Virus record (IMG/VR): IMGVR_UViG_3300042309_001504
Span: 32,001-96,000 of that record
Source: a virus
Length of the DNA: 64,000 nt
Reading direction: 5' to 3' (one strand)
Part shown: in pieces, positions 3,442 to 22,843 of the stretch
Layout of the letters: every line of letters begins with the position of its first letter
How positions within the stretch are numbered: position 1 is the first letter of the stretch
Made by a program: the position numbers and the translations under genes
Notes under the pieces: model-generated
The model's database searches: none
Told to the model about the DNA's origin: nothing
What the model saw: only the letters and a program-made list of their open reading frames with translations

Positions 3442-5754
3442 ATGAATATAGATTATACTATTAATAATGTTTCTTGTAATGGAGGAGATGATGGATCTAT
3501 ATCTATAGATACTATCGTATTAACCTCTGGCGAATATAATATTTATGGCTTTAATTATACTATTGATTGGACAGATAATATTGATAATGAACAATTATTA
3601 AATAGTAATTTAATTGCTACATCTTTAAGTGCTGATACTTATGGTTTTAGATTATTTGGAAATAGTACCTATAGTTCTTGGACATATGTAAACGTTACTG
3701 AACCATTACCACTAACAATTAACAGTATAATTAAAAACAATAATCCATGTAATACAAATGCAACTATAACCGTTAATATTAGTGGTGGGACACCGCCATA
3801 TACAACAACATATGATATTTACTCTATAGTCGGTTCTGGTACTGAAGTTGTATTTTCTGGACTAAATATTGATCTTAGTTCTTTAATATCTGTTACTGAT
3901 ACAGAAGGATGTTCTGTAACTAGCGACAGCACAACGGATATAGTTTTTTCTAATACTACTATTGATTTTTTATCACAAAGTCCACCATTAATTTATGATG
4001 ATCATTTAGAATCTTTTACTTTTTCTATTACTGGATATGGTCCATTCAAAATATTAATATGGAATACTGATGATAATGGTAATAAAAATACTGTTGTTGA
4101 TACAATAGAATTTTTTGATACATCTTATCTCACTAGTATTAATAATAATATATTTACTTATGATATAGGATCAATTATTTATCCAGGATCATATATTTTT
4201 GATATTATTGATTCTAATAACTGTTCAATTACAACATCTGTTTTAAATGCCCAGAATAGTAATCCTTTAAGTGTGAACTTAACATCTACTAATAATAATC
4301 CTATAGATAATGGATTTTTTATAAATACATCAACTATTTTTGATACATTATTGATACCAATCAATCTAATTATTAATAATAATAATTTATTAAATTTTAT
4401 AAAACAACTTAATCTTAATGATAAAATTTTGATTAAAATAAATGATGTAGAATATTTACAAAAGGTAATTCTATTTAACAAAAATAAAAGTAATATTGAT
4501 AATAATTATTTAGATATTTTGCAATTAGCGCCATCTTTAGATTGGTGGTTTTTTAGCATACCAATAGCTATAGGATTTGATTATACTACTCTCACAAATA
4601 TTTTTACAGATAATATACGTTTAGTATATAATAATGAAGAATATACTATTATTCCCGAACTAGATAATGAATCATCAACCATTAAACTAATTAGAGGAGC
4701 ATTAATATCAACAGCATTTAATACTTCCCAATTTAGCAAAAATAATAAAGTAGGAGTTTATTCTTTAAGTGGATCAGAATATACACTAATACAAGAAATA
4801 GAATCCACCTATAATACATCCCTATATAATACTTATGTTGCCGGTTTAGTATATCATATTAATTTTATGGATAATAATATTATTAATAGTAATATAGATA
4901 TTTTTAATCCACAAATCGATGCTCCATCACTAGATAAACTATCCTATCAACAAAAGGTTAAGAATGCTTTGGCTTTCATAAACAATACAAATAATACCAC
5001 ATATATTGCTGCATCACAAAATTATCAAAACAATGGTGGAATAACCTTTAATATTACTGGTGGATATATAGATAATAATTATTCTATAGAATATAAATAT
5101 TGGAACGAAGAATCTAATAATTTACAAAATATTTATTTGAATAACAATCCTTTAACTCAAACAAGAGCATACGGATTAAAAGAAGGCGTATATATTGTTA
5201 AAATTACAGACAAATATAATAATAAAATTAAAATATTAAATAATATATCTTATGATAATCATTATAGTGAAGCATTAAATTATATATATAATATTTTTAA
5301 TACTACTCCATCAAATTTAAATTTTCAGTATGGAGATCTACTAATTCCAGTATATAGATTGGGTTCGTCATCTACCACACTTCAAAATAGTATAATAGGT
5401 ACTGATCCACCAATAATTCCACCAGTTCCTGATCCTATAATTTTAACAGAAGAAATTATACAAGTTAATGTTACTAATAATAGTATATATAATAATAGTT
5501 TAATAGTAACTATTAATCCAACTAATATTAGCGCACATATTAGTGGTCCTAATGGTTATAATAAGATATTTTCTAATAAAACACAATTTAATAATTTACC
5601 ACCAGGGGTATATTATATAAGTGGTAATGATAATGAATTAAGAAATAATTATTTATTTAACAAATTAACTAAAGTTTATGTTAGCAATAATTTACAGGAT
5701 AATATTAATATTATTTTTGATAGTTATTTAAATCAATATATTGTAGGAAATTAA
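3442..5754 (+). CDS. SprB-repeat-containing adhesin-like structural protein
   Basis: Motifs VSCNGGDDGSISI, ISGGTPPYT, VTDTEGCS, IIDSNNCS and NLPPGVY are typical of SprB repeats. Confidence 0.65.
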   Translation: MNIDYTINNVSCNGGDDGSISIDTIVLTSGEYNIYGFNYTIDWTDNIDNEQLLNSNLIATSLSADTYGFRLFGNSTYSSWTYVNVTEPLPLTINSIIKNNNPCNTNATITVNISGGTPPYTTTYDIYSIVGSGTEVVFSGLNIDLSSLISVTDTEGCSVTSDSTTDIVFSNTTIDFLSQSPPLIYDDHLESFTFSITGYGPFKILIWNTDDNGNKNTVVDTIEFFDTSYLTSINNNIFTYDIGSIIYPGSYIFDIIDSNNCSITTSVLNAQNSNPLSVNLTSTNNNPIDNGFFINTSTIFDTLLIPINLIINNNNLLNFIKQLNLNDKILIKINDVEYLQKVILFNKNKSNIDNNYLDILQLAPSLDWWFFSIPIAIGFDYTTLTNIFTDNIRLVYNNEEYTIIPELDNESSTIKLIRGALISTAFNTSQFSKNNKVGVYSLSGSEYTLIQEIESTYNTSLYNTYVAGLVYHINFMDNNIINSNIDIFNPQIDAPSLDKLSYQQKVKNALAFINNTNNTTYIAASQNYQNNGGITFNITGGYIDNNYSIEYKYWNEESNNLQNIYLNNNPLTQTRAYGLKEGVYIVKITDKYNNKIKILNNISYDNHYSEALNYIYNIFNTTPSNLNFQYGDLLIPVYRLGSSSTTLQNSIIGTDPPIIPPVPDPIILTEEIIQVNVTNNSIYNNSLIVTINPTNISAHISGPNGYNKIFSNKTQFNNLPPGVYYISGNDNELRNNYLFNKLTKVYVSNNLQDNINIIFDSYLNQYIVGN

Positions 5755-5758
5755 AATT

Positions 5759-8700
5759 ATGCCATGTCAAAATGTTTCCGCCACGATGGCACTATATGAT
5801 GCTATAACACAAGTCAATATCTTTGGTAATACTCCGATAGAAATTACTTCATTTACTTCTAATATAGGATTTAATAATCAAGAAAGTTCTGTTTCAATAG
5901 ATCTTGTCATTAATCAGTGTACAGTTGGAGGAATAGCGGATCTAAATACTGGATATGCGGTAAATTTTATATGCAATGGTTTTAGTTTTGGAGGCATAGT
6001 TAAAAGAATAGAATACTCCGAGAGTGATGCTGGTATCAAATATAAGATAGAGATTGGGGACACAAGAAAGTTATTAGACGGAGTACAACTACTATTAAGT
6101 GGATATTATTGTAATTTACAAGGTGGTAATTTTATCAATGTATTAAATTTAATAGAAGGAAGATCAGCTGGATCAGCATGTAGTGGACAACTATCTCCAG
6201 GATCATTACCATCAATCGGCAATTGCGCCTTTTATGGTTTAAGTGGAGCGGGAACTGGTCGAGGTATTTCGTATTTACAAGCTATAACGGCTATAGCAAA
6301 TAGTAATAGTCCAGTATTAACAACTGCTGGTACTAGTTTGTATATGAATTTAAGCCCTATAGTAGGTTTGGCAAGTACTATTCCATATGCTACCACAGAT
6401 GGCTCTAGTATGAGTTTGTTAGAAATGATTACAGCCATTTGTGATGAATCAGGATACGACTTTATAACAACGTTAGTTGGTAATATTATCAATTTTATAC
6501 CAATAAACAGAAGAACTAATCCTCAGTTTGGTCAAATTTCATCACTAATTAATTTAGCAAGATCTGGTGGAACTCTTATATCTGCTAGTCAGGGTTTGGA
6601 AGAAACCTATGAACCAACTAGTAAAATAGTAATAGGAGATAAGGTTCAATATTTAAAAACAGGGTCATCTTATTGGTCACCATCTTTTACCACAATGTTA
6701 TTGGGATACACTAACGATGGTTATCCTATTAGGGCCACACAACAGCAGCTCAATAGTGGAATAAATATAAATACAACCACACTAGCATCATCTTTTGCAT
6801 CAGTAGGCTATAATATAGCAAATTCTTTATCTATCAAAGAAAGTGAAATTTTATCTTTAGGAAGTTTATCATTCTGGAAAGCATATTCGTTAACTAATAC
6901 GGATAGTATTGGAGCATATATTGGTCGAACTTTGTTGGGAGAACAATGGGAAACGCTAACCACCCAAGCTATTAACTCATTACTAACAATAGCTGGACAA
7001 AATAAATTAGGAGAATACTCAGCTTTACAACAAGCAATAAATAGTGTGGTGAAATCAGCAACTATAGCAGCACTATTTGATGATGTTGCTTATAGATGGC
7101 TAAAATCTTTTGTTGATGAATATTATGGTAAGCAATGGTTAGTAAATATTAAATCTAGAGTATGTTATAATGCTCCATATGGTCTTTATGGCCCATCAAT
7201 ATCCGAAGGTGGATCAATATTAGTATCAGATGCTCCTTCTGATGGCGGATGGCCAGATAGCAGTAATATATTAGGATTGAATTATGGAACAGCAGATACT
7301 AGTTTATTTCAGTTAGATGATGGTCGCATAGGATCATTTATAGCTTTTAGAAGTAATATTATTGCTAATAAAACATGGAAAAATAACTCAATAGTTTATT
7401 ATCTTAATACTGGTTTATTAAGTGGTGAGTATATATCTAAAAATGGTTTTATATATATGCCATGTTCTATAGATAGTAAAATGTATAACGGTATTGATAA
7501 TAATGTTGAACTTTTAGTAAAAACACCATTTATTCCACTAAGTATTAGGCCCACAACATCAACTACTATTGCTAATGGATTGTATGCTTTAAGTGTTTTA
7601 GCAGGCGCTAACTTAACAAATATTCCACCAGATGCAAAAAGCGGTATTAATCCTACAATTTTTAATAATCTAAAAGATAATCCTGCGGCTGCTTCTTTTG
7701 ATGGTATTTGTTTACCAATGAAAAGTAATATGTATGTTTATGGTCCATATATGGGATCTAGTGGTCAGGTCGGAGGCACAATAGTTCAGGAGATGAATGA
7801 CTTAAATCCTTGGACATATGGCGGTGTTCAAAATATGAATTCTATTGGACAAGCATTAGCAAATAATGGATTTAAAGGACAAAATAAATCTGAAAGCGGA
7901 TCAATAACATTAGCAGAAGCACCAGCGTATTCTTTGGGGCCGGTAGCATCTTTAGGAGGTTTGGTTTTAGGAAGTGTTAGTACAAATTTTGGAGAGAGTG
8001 GAGTTACAACAACATATAATTTTCAAACGTTTACTCCTAAATTCGGTAATTATGCACAAGCATTGGCTAACAATGTAAAAAGAGGAGTTGAAAATCGTAA
8101 ACAAATATTCAAATATATCAAAGAATTTAATCAAAAAACAATTACCAGTATCAATAACGCTAGAACATCTGTTGTAAAAAGTACTTGGAATCTAAACAAT
8201 CCGATTAACAATACTCCAATAAATCAATCATCTAGTGCTTCACAAAATAGTCCTAATATACTATTATTTAGTAATTATATTTTAAGAGGAGACATAGACG
8301 TTCAAGCTAGTTCTGGTGGTGGAGGTGGTGGTTTTGGTTCTTTTGCTATAAATCCATTTTCGTGTGAACAAATTTGTGATGGAGTACAACCAATAGGTCT
8401 TTTGCCGGGAAATAGTGGTAGTAATAATAATAAGAGAATATATTCGTTATCTGGTTTTGAAAAAACAGATGCTATAGATCAATTTTTAGACGCTAATAGA
8501 TATTCTGCATATGCTATATCATCCACAGATGCAATTTTTGCACCAGTATCTTTACGAGGATCTGGTTCGTTACCAAGATTAATTCATACTAACGTTAATC
8601 AAAATATACCGTTAAGCAAATCAAGAGGCTGTATGCCACCAATATGGTTGGCTGGAAATATTATTGGGAATTTGCCCATCACACAATTATATCTCAATCC

Positions 8701-17393: not shown

Positions 17394-17421
17394 ATTGTAC
17401 CGAAAACCTGGGTTTTGTCAA
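17394..17421 (-). promoter_or_regulatory. Sigma70-type promoter for ssb
   Basis: TTGACA (17421-17416), 16-nt spacer, TACAAT (17399-17394). Confidence 0.75.
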
Positions 17422-19016
17422 GCTTTCGGTAGATACAACTTATCAACTATCAATCCATCTTTTGTTTTACTTTTGTTTCCCGACAGTATAACAACATTAC
17501 CAACAAACAAAGCATTTTTATATTTAGCATATTGGTCTGGAAAAAAGATTATTGAATCCAAGCAACCAGTATTATCAGAAGCGGTAATAAAAGACATTTC
17601 TGCTCCCGGTTTAGCTCCACTCTTTGTTTTTACAATATTTATATTTTCTATTTCACATGCTAATATCGCATTATTTACTGTAGGACTTTTAAAATCTCTA
17701 CAACTACAATTAGTCATATTGATATCATACATATCTATTTTTGAACAAGTAACTGAATATCCCAATAATGAATATTCTGTATCAGATAACCACTCTATAG
17801 TATCATCTAAACTATAAGGCGGTCTATTAATAGTCTGCATAAGATTTTGTATAATATCTTTACGTTTTACTGATAGTCTAGGCATTTTCATTAGTAGTAC
17901 AAACATATCATATAGAGAACCACAAATATTATTTGATATAAATTGTAATTCTTTGTCTGTTAATTCTGATAGTAATGTATATTCAAAAATTAATTTATTT
18001 CTAGATTTACCAAAATGATCAAATGCACCAACAGAGATTAATGCTTTGGATGCTGTGCTATTAATTTTTAGTAGAATTTTAATTAATATATCATACCACG
18101 ATGAGGTATTTAAATCCATATTATTTTGAGCTACTAAATTAGTCATTTTATCAAATACAGAATCTCCAACACCCTTTATGTCTGTTAAGCCAAAATAAAT
18201 AGATTTGTTTTTTAATATAAAATATTTATTCAGGAGTCTAAAATCAGGAGGTTTAACAGTTACATTCATCTCATTAGCATTTTGTATCAACTCTTTAATT
18301 TCTGCTTGAGGATCAATTTTATCTTTAGCAAATCTAAGATAGGAATTAAAAAATATTCTTGGAAAATGTGCCTTACAATATGCAGATAAATATGCATTAA
18401 TAGCATAACTTACAGCATGACTTTTATTAAAAGAATATCTTTGGCTTTTTTCAATCCAGTTAAAAATTTCTTCTGCTTGATTCTGACTAATTATTTTGGT
18501 TTCTAGACAACCATTTATAAATTTAGATTTAAGCTTAGACATTTCTTCTGGTTTTTTCTTACCAATAGCTTTTCTTAACATATCTGCTTCTTGCAAATCA
18601 AAACCAGCTAATTCTTTAGCTATTTCCATAGCCTGTTCTTGATAAACCATCTCTCCGTATGTATTAGATAATATCGGTTCAAGAGCATCGTGAAAATAAT
18701 CTACTGATTCTTCACCATTCTTTTTATCTATATAGTGATTGCTAACACTTTTCCCATCTCTAATTGCTTCTAAACAACCGGGCCTCATGATGCTAATTAG
18801 TGCTGCTAATTGCTCTATATTTGTTGGTTTGAGTTTTTTTGCCATTGTTTTACCAAGTCTGCTTTCTAATTGAAAACATCCTTTAGTATTACCATCAGAA
18901 ATTAAATTCCATGTTTTTGAACACGATAAATTTAATTTGCTAATATCTGGATTAAACTCAACACCATCATCGGTTCTATCGAACTGACAACCACAAGAAT
19001 ATTTTATATTTTTCAT
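17418..19016 (-). CDS. dnaE: DNA polymerase III alpha subunit, C-terminal half (fingers, HhH, OB)
   Basis: GNTKGCFQLES, MRPG, VYQEQ, LRKAIGKK, YSFNKSHAVSY and GLTDIKGVG motifs; OB-fold tail. Confidence 0.92.
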   Translation of the reverse strand: MKNIKYSCGCQFDRTDDGVEFNPDISKLNLSCSKTWNLISDGNTKGCFQLESRLGKTMAKKLKPTNIEQLAALISIMRPGCLEAIRDGKSVSNHYIDKKNGEESVDYFHDALEPILSNTYGEMVYQEQAMEIAKELAGFDLQEADMLRKAIGKKKPEEMSKLKSKFINGCLETKIISQNQAEEIFNWIEKSQRYSFNKSHAVSYAINAYLSAYCKAHFPRIFFNSYLRFAKDKIDPQAEIKELIQNANEMNVTVKPPDFRLLNKYFILKNKSIYFGLTDIKGVGDSVFDKMTNLVAQNNMDLNTSSWYDILIKILLKINSTASKALISVGAFDHFGKSRNKLIFEYTLLSELTDKELQFISNNICGSLYDMFVLLMKMPRLSVKRKDIIQNLMQTINRPPYSLDDTIEWLSDTEYSLLGYSVTCSKIDMYDINMTNCSCRDFKSPTVNNAILACEIENINIVKTKSGAKPGAEMSFITASDNTGCLDSIIFFPDQYAKYKNALFVGNVVILSGNKSKTKDGLIVDKLYLPKA

Positions 19017-19696
19017 TTAAATGAATTCTCAAAATTAACTTTTGGTGATAAATTACGATGTAATTTCAAAAAACGTATCAAAATATTAGCACAGTCCTTC
19101 ACATCCTTTAACGCATCATGTGCTCCAGATTTATCTATTCCTAGATAATCTCTAATATTATCTAATGAATAACTCTTAATTTTATCTATATTTTCAAACC
19201 AATAAAAAATTAAATTCATAATATCTAAAACGTCTCTTGGATAAAATATATTACTATAATTTTCTTTATTTGTATTTTTATATTTTTGGCTTAATCTATT
19301 AACTATAACAAGATCAAACCTATGTATATTGTATCCGGCAGCAATTGGTGCAGAAAATTCATTTTTCTTTGTTGATCTACAATGATACTTATCCAAGTAA
19401 TTGGTAAATTGTTTCCATGATTGTTCTTGCTTTGGATAAGTTTTCCATAGCTCTAGAATATCTGATTGAGAGCATCCTTTGACTTTAGCATGAAAATCTA
19501 GTATATCATTATCATATTGATGATCTATATTTTTTTCTAAAAGTTCTGGTCTTAGATTAATATTAAATTCTGAATCTTTTATAATTTCTAATTTAATTGG
19601 ATCAATCATAACACACGCTAATTGTACTGGACTACATTCGTGTGGATTTTTACCATCGGTCTCAAAATCAAATACGCATATTTTTTTATTAGCCAT
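19013..19696 (-). CDS. dnaQ: DEDDh 3'-5' exonuclease (Pol III epsilon-like)
   Basis: ExoI FDFETDG, ExoII GYNIHRFD, ExoIII HDALKD. Confidence 0.85.
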   Translation of the reverse strand: MANKKICVFDFETDGKNPHECSPVQLACVMIDPIKLEIIKDSEFNINLRPELLEKNIDHQYDNDILDFHAKVKGCSQSDILELWKTYPKQEQSWKQFTNYLDKYHCRSTKKNEFSAPIAAGYNIHRFDLVIVNRLSQKYKNTNKENYSNIFYPRDVLDIMNLIFYWFENIDKIKSYSLDNIRDYLGIDKSGAHDALKDVKDCANILIRFLKLHRNLSPKVNFENSFK

Positions 19697-19875
19697 TAAT
19701 TAATAACCTCTACTTGTTCCATAGGTTTGATCACAACATGTTCATTATTACTAAGCCTTATTGCATTATGCTTAACTTTGCAACAAGTTATTCTCTCTTC
19801 TTTGATTTTTTTATATTCTTCATTTGTTGCCAGTACTCTAAACTTCACATCTAATGGAATTTCATAAAATTTCAT
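19696..19875 (-). CDS. 59-aa hypothetical protein (not in ORF track)
   Basis: MKFYEIPLDVKFRVLATNEEYKKIKEERITCCKVKHNAIRLSNNEHVVIKPMEQVEVIN*. GGAG RBS; ATGA overlap with the dnaE-N stop and TAATG overlap with dnaQ. Confidence 0.8.
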   Translation of the reverse strand: MKFYEIPLDVKFRVLATNEEYKKIKEERITCCKVKHNAIRLSNNEHVVIKPMEQVEVIN

Positions 19876-21772
19876 AAACTATCTCCTATCTTTAGCGTGG
19901 AAGAAATATCCATAATTTTATCTAACATTGCTACACCCAATACATCAAACTTAATTATACCAATACTTTCTAAATCTTGCATTTCCATACCAGCAATCGG
20001 TTGTTTATTTTTAGTGTCATAAACCATAGGACAAATATTTTCTAGATCATTAGACGCTATAACAACTCCGGCAGCATGTTTTGATTGATTAGATTTAGTG
20101 CCTTCTAATCTAATAGCCTGTTCAAATCTTTTGGCAAGTGGTCCTTCTAAGGAATCATTTTCTCCTATATAACACCATTCTTTTAGATCTTTACTATTAT
20201 TTTCTAATGCCCACTGTATTATTGATGCTTCTCCATATTCTTCTTTCATTTCTTGAAGTTCATCAGCAATTTTAGCCTCGTCCGGTATAAATTTAGTAAT
20301 CTTATTCATCTCATCAAAAGATACATTTCCATATGCTCTCAAAACATCTTTTAATGCACCACGACCTTTCATCGTATTAAAAGTAATCATTTGTGATACT
20401 TTTTTGTGACCATATTTATTTTTTATATAATTTATAATATCTTCCCTTTTATTAATTGGCACATCGATATCGATATCTGGCATACTAATTCTATCCTTGG
20501 TATTTCTACCAGCATTATAAAATCTATCAAACATAAGATTATATTTAATAGGATCTATAGATGTTATTCCTAATAAATAAGAAACTAAACATCCAGCAGC
20601 ACTACCTCTTCCCGGACCCGGCAACCAGTTGTTATCTTTTACATAGTTAACAATATCGTTAACAATTAGAAAATAACTTGATAACCCGGCGCCTTGTAAA
20701 ACACCCAATTCATATTTTATTCTATCTGCATAAATATTTTCTTGCTCTTTAGTTATATTGCCAGATAGTTTTTGTTTCCATCCGTTTCTACATAATTGTC
20801 TAACATATTCATCATCCGAATCATATGATTTTGGATAATCAAATGGTGGAAGCATAGGCTTACTCATAATATCATACTCTTCACACATTGATGATGCGAA
20901 TAATGTGTTCTGGATCTCTTCTTCTGTATGAAGACTTTTCATTTCTTCAAAAGTAGGAATATGAAAATTATCAGATGTAAAAAAGCAACTCATACCAACA
21001 TCATCATCATTATCCAATTTTCTGTTAATTTCAGATAGTGTTGTTTTTAAATTATTACATAATAAAATTCTCTGATCAACAGCATCCTCTTTTCTACAAT
21101 AATGAGCATCAGGAGTACAGATTACTTTTATTCCAAATTTTTTACCAAGATCCCTAATATAAGAAGTTAGTGGTACTTGAATAGGTAAATTTTCTTGGTC
21201 TATTAGTTGAGATTCTAAAAATATATTTTCTCTACCAAAAACATCTATCAATTTATTTAGATGATTATTACTATTCTTATCACTATCTGAAGATATGTGA
21301 TCATTGTCAAGTATAGTATTAGCTAAAGATGATCCTAGATGACCAGTGATACAAAGCATATTTTTACTAATGATTGATCCTAAAGTATCTAGATCTAATC
21401 TTGGTTTCTTATAAAAATTATCTCCATAATTAGAAATAGAAATAACTTTTATCAAATCTTTCCATCCATTAAGATTTTTAGCTAGTATTAGCAAATGACT
21501 TAATTTACCATTTTCTTTGGTTTTTATAGATGCGTCTTGATCACAAACATATATTTCACAGCCTAAGATTGGTTTAATTCCTTTTTTATTCATTTCAGAA
21601 TAAAATTGTATAGCTCCAGAAATAGAACCATGATCTGTTAATGCGCAAGAAGTCGCACCTATTTCTAGACACCTATTAGCGATTTGATGTGGTTTAGACA
21701 ATCCATCCAATAACGAGTAATGAGTCGTTAGGAATGGACATGCAAAGGCACATAAGTCTTTGTCATATCCAT
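19872..21772 (-). CDS. dnaE: DNA polymerase III alpha subunit, N-terminal half (PHP + palm); 8-nt interruption at 21723-21730
   Basis: AAGGAG RBS, then MDMTKTYVPLHVHS*, resuming as HYSLLDGLSKP in another frame. ALTDHG, GCEIY, DAHY, GPGRGSAAG, MPDIDID, SKHAAG and KFDVLG present. Confidence 0.9.
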
Positions 21773-21799
21773 CTATTTGTCTCCTTTCTTTTCTTAAAA

Positions 21800-22843
21800 T
21801 TATTCAACGCTGCCCGGTGCTTTGTATGCCGATACAGTATAACCGGGAAAAGTGTATTCGTCAACAACAACATCCATTCCTTTAACATCTATATCGTGTT
21901 TAATCTGTTCACATTTGGTCATTATATTATTTTTAGCAACTGTTTGGTTGTCTCTGTATTCAGTAATGGTTGGTATATGAGTATTTTCAAAAGACGTTTT
22001 ACCAAAATGGCATAACTTATTGCACATCCATGTTTTATTGAGTCTAGGTTTAGTGGTTTTTTTAATAATTTCATATTTATCTTTTAGCATATTTTCTGTG
22101 CTTTTTAGGTCAGAATTATTAAAACATATAGAGTATGGACCACCATCATTAATAAAATAGATTGTTACAATAACATTATCTATATGAGGATATAATTGCT
22201 TTAATGCATAATGATAAATTTTAAGCTGAGGATCTTTTTCTAGCTTTTCCTGTGTCTTTTCTTGTCCTGTGGCCCAATCTAATCTACGACCAGTTTTCCA
22301 ATCTACAATTTCATATGTATTATCATCTATTTTAGTAATTAGATCTATCGTTCCCTTAATTGCTAAATTACCACTAATAGTTTCATCTTTTAATTTGAAA
22401 GAGTATTTAGACCATGGTTTTTTAATTTCTATATCAAACTTTTGTTCTGGACACACTATGATTCTATTTCTTGGATCAAACATTCCTCCATTATGAGATA
22501 TGGCCTTATATACCCAGCTATGACAATCTTTATAATCTTTAATTTCCCATGTATGATGGGAAAATTGTTTAGAATAATAATTATATACTTTTTCTATAAT
22601 AGTATTTAAATTATATTTATTAACATTAATATTACCAAGTATATCATCTTCAACAGTTTTTTCATCATTTTGAACTCCTTGTTGTATAACGGCTAGAATT
22701 TCTAAAACTTTATGAACTATCGTTCCTTTATCCGCCTTTTTATTAGACGGACCCCTCCATCCTAAAACATATTCGAAAAAATATTGCTGTTCGCACATAT
22801 TGTGCGTATTATAACTAGATGATCTAAAGTAAGTAATAATTAT
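21800..22843 (-). CDS. PD-(D/E)XK exonuclease (RecB/AddB/Cas4-like), probable ATA start
   Basis: GTIVH, E, GTIDL, IVDWKTG and QLKIY motifs. Frame extends 15 codons upstream of the first ATG to an ATA preceded by AAGGTG. Confidence 0.85.
   Translation of the reverse strand: MIITYFRSSSYNTHNMCEQQYFFEYVLGWRGPSNKKADKGTIVHKVLEILAVIQQGVQNDEKTVEDDILGNINVNKYNLNTIIEKVYNYYSKQFSHHTWEIKDYKDCHSWVYKAISHNGGMFDPRNRIIVCPEQKFDIEIKKPWSKYSFKLKDETISGNLAIKGTIDLITKIDDNTYEIVDWKTGRRLDWATGQEKTQEKLEKDPQLKIYHYALKQLYPHIDNVIVTIYFINDGGPYSICFNNSDLKSTENMLKDKYEIIKKTTKPRLNKTWMCNKLCHFGKTSFENTHIPTITEYRDNQTVAKNNIMTKCEQIKHDIDVKGMDVVVDEYTFPGYTVSAYKAPGSVE

Follow-up and report, generated by a model that had tools for sequence, protein, structure and literature searches.

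A stop-initiated gap in the dnaE gene of uncultured lake phages: a conserved recoding cassette and candidate short ribosomal bypass

Known bypass systems and the interrupted dnaE gene

Proven programmed bypassing rests essentially on one system, phage T4 gene 60 and its homologues, in which 50 nt are bypassed within an element of the HNH endonuclease MobA (Manning and Atkins, bioRxiv 10.1101/2022.08.31.505936). In excerpts of that preprint, the MobA/gene 60 element consists of the endonuclease, an N-terminal extension that overlaps the endonuclease open reading frame (ORF), a re-encoded host motif and, finally, the bypass cassette. The latter remains when the endonuclease has been lost, DNA carrying the insert is protected against cleavage, and latitude in the re-pairing of the transfer RNA (tRNA) in the peptidyl site (P site) is noted. 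Here we describe an 8-nt gap that begins with a stop codon and interrupts the PHP motif of dnaE, the gene of the DNA polymerase III alpha subunit (Pol III alpha), in an uncultured virus. The DNA analysed, hereafter the window, is a stretch of 64,000 nt covering bases 32001-96000 of the 122-kb IMG/VR record IMGVR_UViG_3300042309_001504 (CheckV completeness 88%), and the public sequencing runs that contain the stretch are lake-water metagenomes. As in gene 60, the interrupted sequence is a conserved metal-binding motif, and the protein concerned is essential for phage replication; the motif is that of the PHP domain instead of the topoisomerase Toprim, no sequence relation between the two was detected, and the dnaE gaps measure 6-12 nt, in contrast to 50 nt in gene 60 (20 nt in one gene 60 clade), as far as excerpts of the gene 60 literature describe it. 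The dnaE cassette is real, conserved and selected, and comparison of its sequences indicates that it is most likely read by short programmed ribosomal bypass, a very rare kind of recoding.

Other natural or low-level bypasses offer further points of comparison. The byps of yeast mitochondria, with gaps of 27-55 nt, differ from the dnaE cassette in belonging to a mitochondrial translation system and in being spread over many genes. They resemble it in their many natural copies and in tolerating mismatches between take-off and landing codons, as they are mentioned in excerpts of bioRxiv 10.1101/2022.08.31.505936. In Escherichia coli, low-level stop-hopping takes a peptidyl-tRNA over a stop to a matching codon only a few bases further on, where it pairs again (excerpts of PMC6815119 and bioRxiv 10.1101/2022.08.31.505936). 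The terminase genes of Streptomyces phage Hau3 and of prophages contain candidate bypasses of 10-nt (and 7-nt) blocks after UUA codons (PMC10732093, in excerpt); as in dnaE, short non-coding blocks lie in an essential phage gene, their flanks join into a conserved protein, a slow codon starts the gap, a stem-loop and a Shine-Dalgarno (SD) sequence are the proposed stimulators, and the case is unproven. The terminase blocks differ in that a rare sense codon and not a stop starts the gap, cases are few (3/100 terminase genes), and the excerpts of PMC10732093 report no link to a homing endonuclease.

On the minus strand of the window, to which all features below belong, the SD sequence AAGGAG (21786-21781) stands 8 nt 5' of an ATG (21772-21770) that opens a leader ORF of 14 codons (MDMTKTYVPLHVHS, 21772-21731). 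The leader ends in PLHVHS, supplies the PHP domain with its first strand and HxH, and is three residues longer than its counterpart in uninterrupted relatives. Its last codon, TCC (Ser14, 21733-21731), is the proposed take-off codon and is followed by the 8-nt gap, TAACGACT (21730-21723), made up of the stop TAA (21730-21728) and CGACT; the last triplet of the gap, ACT (21725-21723), is the candidate landing triplet. Directly after the gap, CAT TAC TCG TTA TTG GAT GGA starts at 21722, its CAT (21722-21720) being the resume codon and encoding the His of HYSLLDG. From there the body of dnaE part N (PHP and Pol III alpha NTPase/palm, 19872-21722) is open for 616 codons in a frame offset by 8 nt from that of the leader, and the first ATG, GTG or TTG of this downstream frame is TTG 21710, 12 nt past the resume codon. 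Omitting 21730-21723 yields PLHVHS-HYSLLDG, which is the motif of uninterrupted relatives. A preliminary description, made from the letters alone, had set out this arrangement from AAGGAG to HYSLLDG and was correct in every detail; its further statement that 7/8 positions of the insert are the reverse complement of ACTCGTTA downstream can be read directly from the sequence.

The 8 nt are genuine DNA and not an assembly slip. Three further IMG/VR contigs from other samples carry an identical stretch including the 8 nt, and in 4/4 public lake runs (2016-2022) contigs cover 21500-21950 with no insertions or deletions, three of them with 1-2 single-nucleotide polymorphisms (SNPs) elsewhere; this lake-run evidence consists of assembled contigs and not of raw reads, so that rare variants could be hidden. 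The possible assembly error against which the preliminary description had cautioned is set aside by these identical copies. A search of the 122-kb, 88% complete record gave dnaE part N as its single Pol III alpha match and detected no polymerase of family A or B, an absence that in an incomplete record is no proof.

Recurrence and composition of the gap

Twenty-five close loci were compared, of which three are identical to the window, 21 are uninterrupted and one (L019) has an insert. The uninterrupted close loci read M-K-N-Y-I-P-L-H-V-H-S-H-Y-S and start on an overlap with the stop of the upstream gene instead of behind an SD sequence, which assigns the SD sequence to the cassette. The insert of L019 is 11 nt long and sits at the same codon boundary, TCT TAG GTGGG TCT CAC.

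Viral contigs were also scanned with a first pattern consisting of HxH-S, 5-35 further bases and H-[YF]-S-L-L-D-G. Together with a GAC variant it gave 66 matches, in 58 of which the insert begins with a stop; the other eight lack a stop-first insert, most being in-frame HxHxHxH motifs and one apparently unrelated. A third pattern, with a free resume codon, added forms resuming at ATG or GAA. A homology set was chosen solely by protein similarity to the gene body. Its best 80 of 593 relatives comprise 65 uninterrupted genes and 15 with a cassette, and in 15/15 of the latter the stop directly follows the Ser codon and an in-frame x-[YF]-S-L-L-D-G lies past the gap. The union of the pattern scans and the homology sets holds 51 distinct cassettes in viral contigs, with the gap at one codon boundary. 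The preliminary description had proposed the 5' ends of related phage dnaE genes as a check, and these 51 cassettes, with stop-first inserts at the same boundary and compensatory pairing (see below), provide it. Among the 120 matches to the first pattern listed for cellular genomes, none is stop-first, a count that does not show absence from bacteria. Of the cellular matches listed, 113/120 are in-frame HxHxHxH motifs of DnaE, and the DnaE of Planctomycetota and Patescibacteria (loci from L093 on) frequently shows HxHxHxH-YSLLDG in frame, which exceeds the phage motif by two residues.

Gap lengths of 6, 7, 8, 9, 10, 11 and 12 nt occur in 1, 2, 3, 11, 15, 17 and 2 of the 51 cassettes, and length modulo 3 is 0, 1 and 2 in 14, 17 and 20 of them. 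That all phases are present argues against one common frameshift or readthrough mechanism, and in the window itself the dnaE body is out of frame with the stop, as stop-codon readthrough would not allow. The first triplet of the gap is a stop in 51/51 cassettes (TAA 28, TAG 20, TGA 3), and the take-off codon before it, always of the form TCY, TCG or TCA, encodes Ser in 51/51 (TCT 32, TCC 17, TCG 1, TCA 1). At the other end, the triplet before the resume codon is UCN in 34 cassettes, ACU in nine, GCY in six, UUU in one and UGA in one, with a central C in 49/51. No UCN triplet occurs earlier within the gap (0/43 gaps, 297 interior positions). The TCG take-off codon goes with a TCG landing triplet, and ACU landing triplets, found in at least four lineages, go with a UCC take-off codon in 9/9 cases, as against 8/42 among the other cassettes. 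The window belongs to the latter form: its pair UCC/ACU is unmatched, where gene 60-type bypass has matched codons. The preliminary description had recognised that TCC/ACT is no matched pair; the relatives mostly have one (UCN, 34/51). Translation would resume at CAY in 38 cassettes, at ATG in 11 and at GAA in two, and uninterrupted relatives have His or Met at this position; in the AUG-resuming cassettes (11/51) a GGUGGG-like purine run precedes the AUG.

Hairpin, leader and the reading of the gap

The messenger RNA (mRNA) around the gap folds into a hairpin, which in the window has -15.1 kcal/mol and z = -3.71 and is matched in stability by 0/200 shuffles. A hairpin with the stop inside its stem had been predicted in the preliminary description; the fold bears this out, and both an outer and an inner helix are found. 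The 5' arm of the outer helix (GUCCAUUC, 21739-21732) spans the Val-His codons and the first two bases of the take-off codon, and its 3' arm (GGAUGGAU, 21708-21701) lies inside Leu-Asp-Gly-Leu codons. The inner helix joins UAACGA (21730-21725), that is, the stop and 3 nt including the first base of the landing triplet, to UCGUUA (21716-21711) in the Ser-Leu codons. Between these arms an 8-nt apical loop takes in the resume codon and the Tyr codon, together with the CU that ends the landing triplet.

This two-helix architecture is the minimum-free-energy fold in 38/40 cassettes. All eight pairs of the outer helix form in 36/40 cassettes and in 0/54 distinct uninterrupted 5' ends (3-7 of 8 there), which makes the outer helix a property of the cassette and not of the coding sequence. 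The inner helix has a mean of 6.76 bp with its own partner versus 5.33 +/- 0.18 bp when partners are swapped, and 0/2000 swaps reach the observed value. RNAalifold run on a MAFFT alignment recovered the outer helix only, with gaps misplaced and the inner helix in two registers; pairs were therefore counted by codon-anchored position. Counted in this way, Ser position 3 pairs as U-A 24, A-U 4, C-G 3 and G.U/U.G 4, Tyr position 3 as A-U 11 and G-C 13, and Leu position 3 as A-U 24, U-A 10, G-C 1 and C-G 1. These are compensatory changes at synonymous sites, and the G.U pairs point to a structure at the RNA level, on the sense strand. No Rfam family matched 21300-22100 at E up to 1. The least structured cassettes, at loci L070 (UCU UAA UCU) and L087 (UCG UAAA UCG), have perfectly matched codons, which suggests a trade-off between structure and codon match across cassettes. 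The landing triplet contributes its first base to a pair of the inner helix in most cassettes, and the identity of this base may follow the helix rather than the tRNA.

The protein on either side of the gap is conserved as well. The Tyr, Pro and Leu positions of the leader, which no search pattern demanded, are kept as Tyr in 51/51 cassettes (2 codons), Pro in 50/51 (3 codons) and Leu in 51/51 (5 codons). The equivalent stretch of an uninterrupted relative aligns with Pol III alpha 2hpi, which we take to be the Thermus aquaticus enzyme, from residue 7, at the very start of the PHP fold. Past the gap the body is open for ~600 codons in all 34 deeply diverged cassette lineages of a tree from which six cassettes with <300 available residues were left out. 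Since the leader codons are kept and the body stays open, both behave as parts of one working enzyme. Counted from the first in-frame start, the leader is exactly 14 codons long in 29/40 cassettes and 13-15 in the other 11; it begins M-[DG]-[VM], and its conserved part coincides with the PHP motif, so that a role of the peptide as a signal is inseparable from what the enzyme requires. These data together show genuine DNA, a conserved cassette under selection, a gap that keeps to no one phase, and a covarying hairpin.

We consider it probable, from these sequence patterns, that the gap in dnaE is read by programmed translational bypass, as a short analogue of T4 gene 60. The ribosome would start at ATG 21772 behind the strong SD sequence, translate 14 codons to Ser (UCC) and meet UAA in the aminoacyl site (A site); a fraction of the ribosomes would keep the peptidyl-tRNA(Ser), slide 8 nt until ACU is in the P site, and resume at CAU. 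The predicted product would have the junction HVHS-HYS (TYVPLHVHSHYSLLDGLSK) and thus the uninterrupted PHP motif of gap-less relatives. Likely stimulators would be the slowly decoded stop codon and the two-helix mRNA hairpin, whose 5' arms contain the take-off codon and the stop and whose apical loop presents the resume codon and the landing triplet. It is a speculation, prompted by excerpts of PMC6815119, that the strong SD sequence and the near-fixed 14-codon leader could let a trailing ribosome load behind a paused one. The cassette comprises the whole 5' module, that is, the SD sequence, the three extra N-terminal residues, the re-encoded PLHVHS and the gap. The preliminary description had named a hop, a -1 shift or RNA processing as routes to the full-length polymerase; gaps in all three phases, the stop-first rule and the covarying hairpin speak for the hop, and a single -1 shift could not repair them all.

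The likeness to gene 60, as that system is portrayed in excerpts of its literature, extends to several details. In both, the take-off codon is immediately followed by a stop that forms part of a stem-loop's 5' arm, take-off and landing sites can usually be read by one tRNA, and the gap is free of premature landing triplets; in both, the cassette brings its own N-terminal extension and re-encoded host motif, the downstream start overlaps the endonuclease ORF (by 11 nt in dnaE relatives and 8-32 nt in gene 60), and the cassette persists after loss of the endonuclease. The dnaE cassette differs in that take-off would come after only 14 codons, so that the nascent chain cannot fill the exit tunnel, in that landing and resumption would both fall within the hairpin loop instead of far beyond it, in having a second, outer helix that includes the take-off codon, and in a landing triplet that is non-cognate in 17/51 cassettes, the window included. 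With the stop-hopping of E. coli, again as excerpted, the dnaE cassette shares the short distance, the stop in the A site and the proposed re-pairing of the P-site tRNA, and L070 and L087 have exactly this form. E. coli stop-hopping is unprogrammed and inefficient, whereas the dnaE device has a conserved putative stimulatory structure and, as a fixed part of the only replicase gene, has to work well enough for replication to proceed.

Several points weigh against reading the gap as a bypass of this kind. Landing would take place within a hairpin loop even though the 5' arm of that hairpin is already unwound at take-off, which does not fit the gene 60 model. In the window the landing triplet ACU is not a Ser codon and could pair with tRNA(Ser, GGA) at only 2/3 positions, and in two relatives the landing triplet, UUU or UGA, has no central C at all. 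The 51 cassettes are distinct sequences and not independent events, and the pattern scans required HxH-S upstream and x-[YF]-S-L-L-D-G downstream, so that these features are partly there by construction; only the 15 homology-set cassettes and the leader codons are free of this bias. Neither 21400-21900 nor one relative's cassette had a meaningful DNA match among 50,697 phage records, and a protein search of the same records found no close relatives, the best having <35% identity; all members are thus uncultured, and no cultured system is at hand. The hop, its efficiency and the role of the hairpin are, finally, deduced by comparing sequences. As to the decoding machinery, no tRNA-Ser or suppressor tRNA was found in the record, only a tRNA-Leu(CAA) at 104033-104117 and a transfer-messenger RNA (tmRNA; tag GTNQLALAA) at 112443-112793, both outside the window.

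A more novel variant would be a structure-guided micro-hop, in which the hairpin presents the resume codon in its loop and itself sets the landing, in place of codon re-pairing. We hold this variant only tentatively and think it rather unlikely. Structure-guided landing would explain that the first landing base follows its helix partner (U-A, G-C, A-U), that ACU and GCY serve as well as UCN, and that ACU arose in at least four lineages. If true, the mechanism would differ from gene 60 bypass, and a mobile cassette would carry it, enabling an HNH endonuclease to interrupt an invariant catalytic motif harmlessly.

Among explanations without a hop, termination followed by reinitiation is improbable. 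The 14-residue leader would be released at UAA and translation would restart at TTG 21710 (AUG in M-type relatives), giving a two-piece enzyme that either misses the first PHP strand or has the leader peptide bound non-covalently. The stop is always the first triplet of the gap, as in translational coupling, an AUG resume codon follows a GGUGGG-like purine run in 11/51 cassettes, and split proteins produced by Mob endonucleases can function as complexes (bioRxiv 10.1101/2022.08.31.505936, in excerpt). Yet the resume codon is CAY in 38/51 cassettes and GAA in two, neither of which is a start codon; in the window the start lies 12 nt further on, at the cost of His-Tyr-Ser-Leu, although these codons are in frame in 15/15 homology-set cassettes, and in some cassettes the TTG is replaced by CTG or CTT. 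The leader, for its part, keeps under purifying selection the exact PHP strand that forms the N-terminal end of the solved Pol III alpha fold, and we know of no precedent for a free 14-mer completing a barrel. Removal of the gap from the RNA, by a micro-intron or editing in which an enzyme recognises the hairpin, excises 6-12 nt and religates the mRNA, is in our view highly improbable. It would accord with a conserved and covarying hairpin, with the free gap length expected of an excised element and with landing triplets that are not always cognate, but it has no need of a stop as first triplet (51/51), of UCN as last triplet (34/51) or of a gap interior free of UCN (0/43). The cut sites would also be asymmetric, one between the helices and one in the loop, the Rfam search noted above was negative, the gap measures only 8 nt, and splicing of 6-12 nt is to our knowledge unreported in bacteria or phages.

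A programmed -1 frameshift confined to the window phage, from UCC to UUC at U-UCC-UAA, would produce HVHS-LTT-HYS. The length of the gap (8 nt = 3n+2) is one that a -1 shift repairs, UUC could pair with the anticodon at 2/3 positions plus one G.U, and a stop in the A site favours slippage in the P site, as established for prfB. CAU UCC UAA, however, contains no X XXY YYZ slippery heptamer, L033, the nearest cassette-bearing relative, has a 9-nt in-frame gap, and 31/51 gap lengths are beyond repair by -1; the product would have three extra residues between HxH and Asp, where spacing is constant in the 54/54 uninterrupted 5' ends that match the motif search. We therefore give such a shift a very small chance. 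Smaller still, and close to nil, is the chance that the gene is dead or that the gap reflects a template-switch mutation or an assembly artefact: the insert does repeat the adjacent sequence almost exactly in inverted form, the outcome expected of a snap-back replication error, but it recurs identically in three other contigs and 4/4 runs, SNP-distinct strains included, 51 diverged cassettes show compensatory changes and intact ~600-codon bodies, and no other replicative polymerase gene was found in the record. We also considered, and rejected, a take-off one codon earlier, at His, with landing on CAY; it would delete Ser-His from the invariant motif and leave the stop unexplained, and it fails for the 13 cassettes that resume at AUG or GAA.

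Neighbouring genes, origin and significance

In a tree of 55 rows the cassette lineages are deep and paraphyletic, with uninterrupted clades nested among them, and gain or loss of the cassette requires at least four changes, two of them forced by starred branches. The window's nearest cassette-bearing relative in the tree is L033 (SH-aLRT 95%), whose in-frame gap starts with UGA. When L019 is set against its gap-less sister L013, two discrete blocks differ, one comprising the SD sequence, the start and three extra codons and the other the gap, which indicates that the 5' module is gained or lost as a unit.

Directly upstream of most cassettes, including that of the window, lies a gene for a core PD-(D/E)XK nuclease. 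At L033/L257, L034, L055, L066 and L243 a gene of ~240 codons is found between this nuclease gene and dnaE, overlapping the dnaE start by 11 nt; it matches the HNH families phrog_3322 (E 7e-23 to 2e-21) and phrog_374, and a Pfam search gave no match for it. L214 retains a 50-residue HNH remnant only, and no HNH homologue was found in the window's 122-kb record, so that the gap here is unaccompanied by a homing endonuclease. The window cassette is probably a remnant after endonuclease loss and, by analogy with the logic of gene 60, the cassette may have originated through HNH homing. The preliminary description had proposed that the gap is a switch on the replicase; nothing testable supported such a role, and the link to HNH genes in relatives points rather to the scar of a selfish element or to protection of an endonuclease target site.

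HNH homologues occur in other settings around dnaE. At L239 one (7-231) stops shortly before a dnaE that has no gap (MNYIPLHCHSMLS), with a further and weaker HNH match on the downstream side (2277-2780); an HNH gene beside a gap-less dnaE means that the endonuclease is not strictly tied to the gap. Distant HNH homologues (27-38% identity) are also present elsewhere around dnaE in cassette-bearing relatives (L048:99-650, L285:3402-3953, L074:3136-3510 and L068:4852-5523). The upstream PD-(D/E)XK gene at L082:1340-3325 has an intein-like LAGLIDADG insertion of ~300 residues. A 12-nt cassette adjoins an N6_N4_Mtase DNA methylase gene at L029:1476-2180 where others adjoin PD-(D/E)XK, and its dnaE is very divergent (long branch).

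The dnaE gene itself is split without inteins at 17418-21772 on the minus strand into part N (PHP, palm) and part C (fingers, HhH, OB), between which lie a 59-codon ORF and a gene for a DnaQ-like RNase_T exonuclease. This order, from part N through the 59-codon ORF and the exonuclease to part C, is kept in 21/22 relatives with enough flank, L021 ending at a contig edge. At L009/L010 (~5736-6762) the exonuclease gene and dnaE part C are set apart by ~1 kb of additional DNA, and at L024 (3001-5329) the match to dnaE part N is stretched, which suggests further mobile inserts in the replicase module.

Full-text searches of the literature found no description of bypass in dnaE or in a PHP motif; bioRxiv 10.1101/2022.08.31.505936 and PMC10732093 came nearest. 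Beside T4 gene 60 and its homologues, the dnaE cassette is a second, unrelated and much smaller candidate device, located in the only replicase gene of widespread lake phages. Its approximately fifty natural variants form a ready-made mutational series: they differ in the length of the gap (6-12 nt), in which stop opens it, in the landing triplet and in how strong the helices are. Should the hop be real, the cassette would be a minimal system for what makes a ribosome take off and where it lands, and gene callers will systematically truncate these polymerases. It would also extend the idea that homing endonucleases carry bypass cassettes to invade invariant motifs, and the cassette of the window would be one that works without its endonuclease and without a cognate landing codon.

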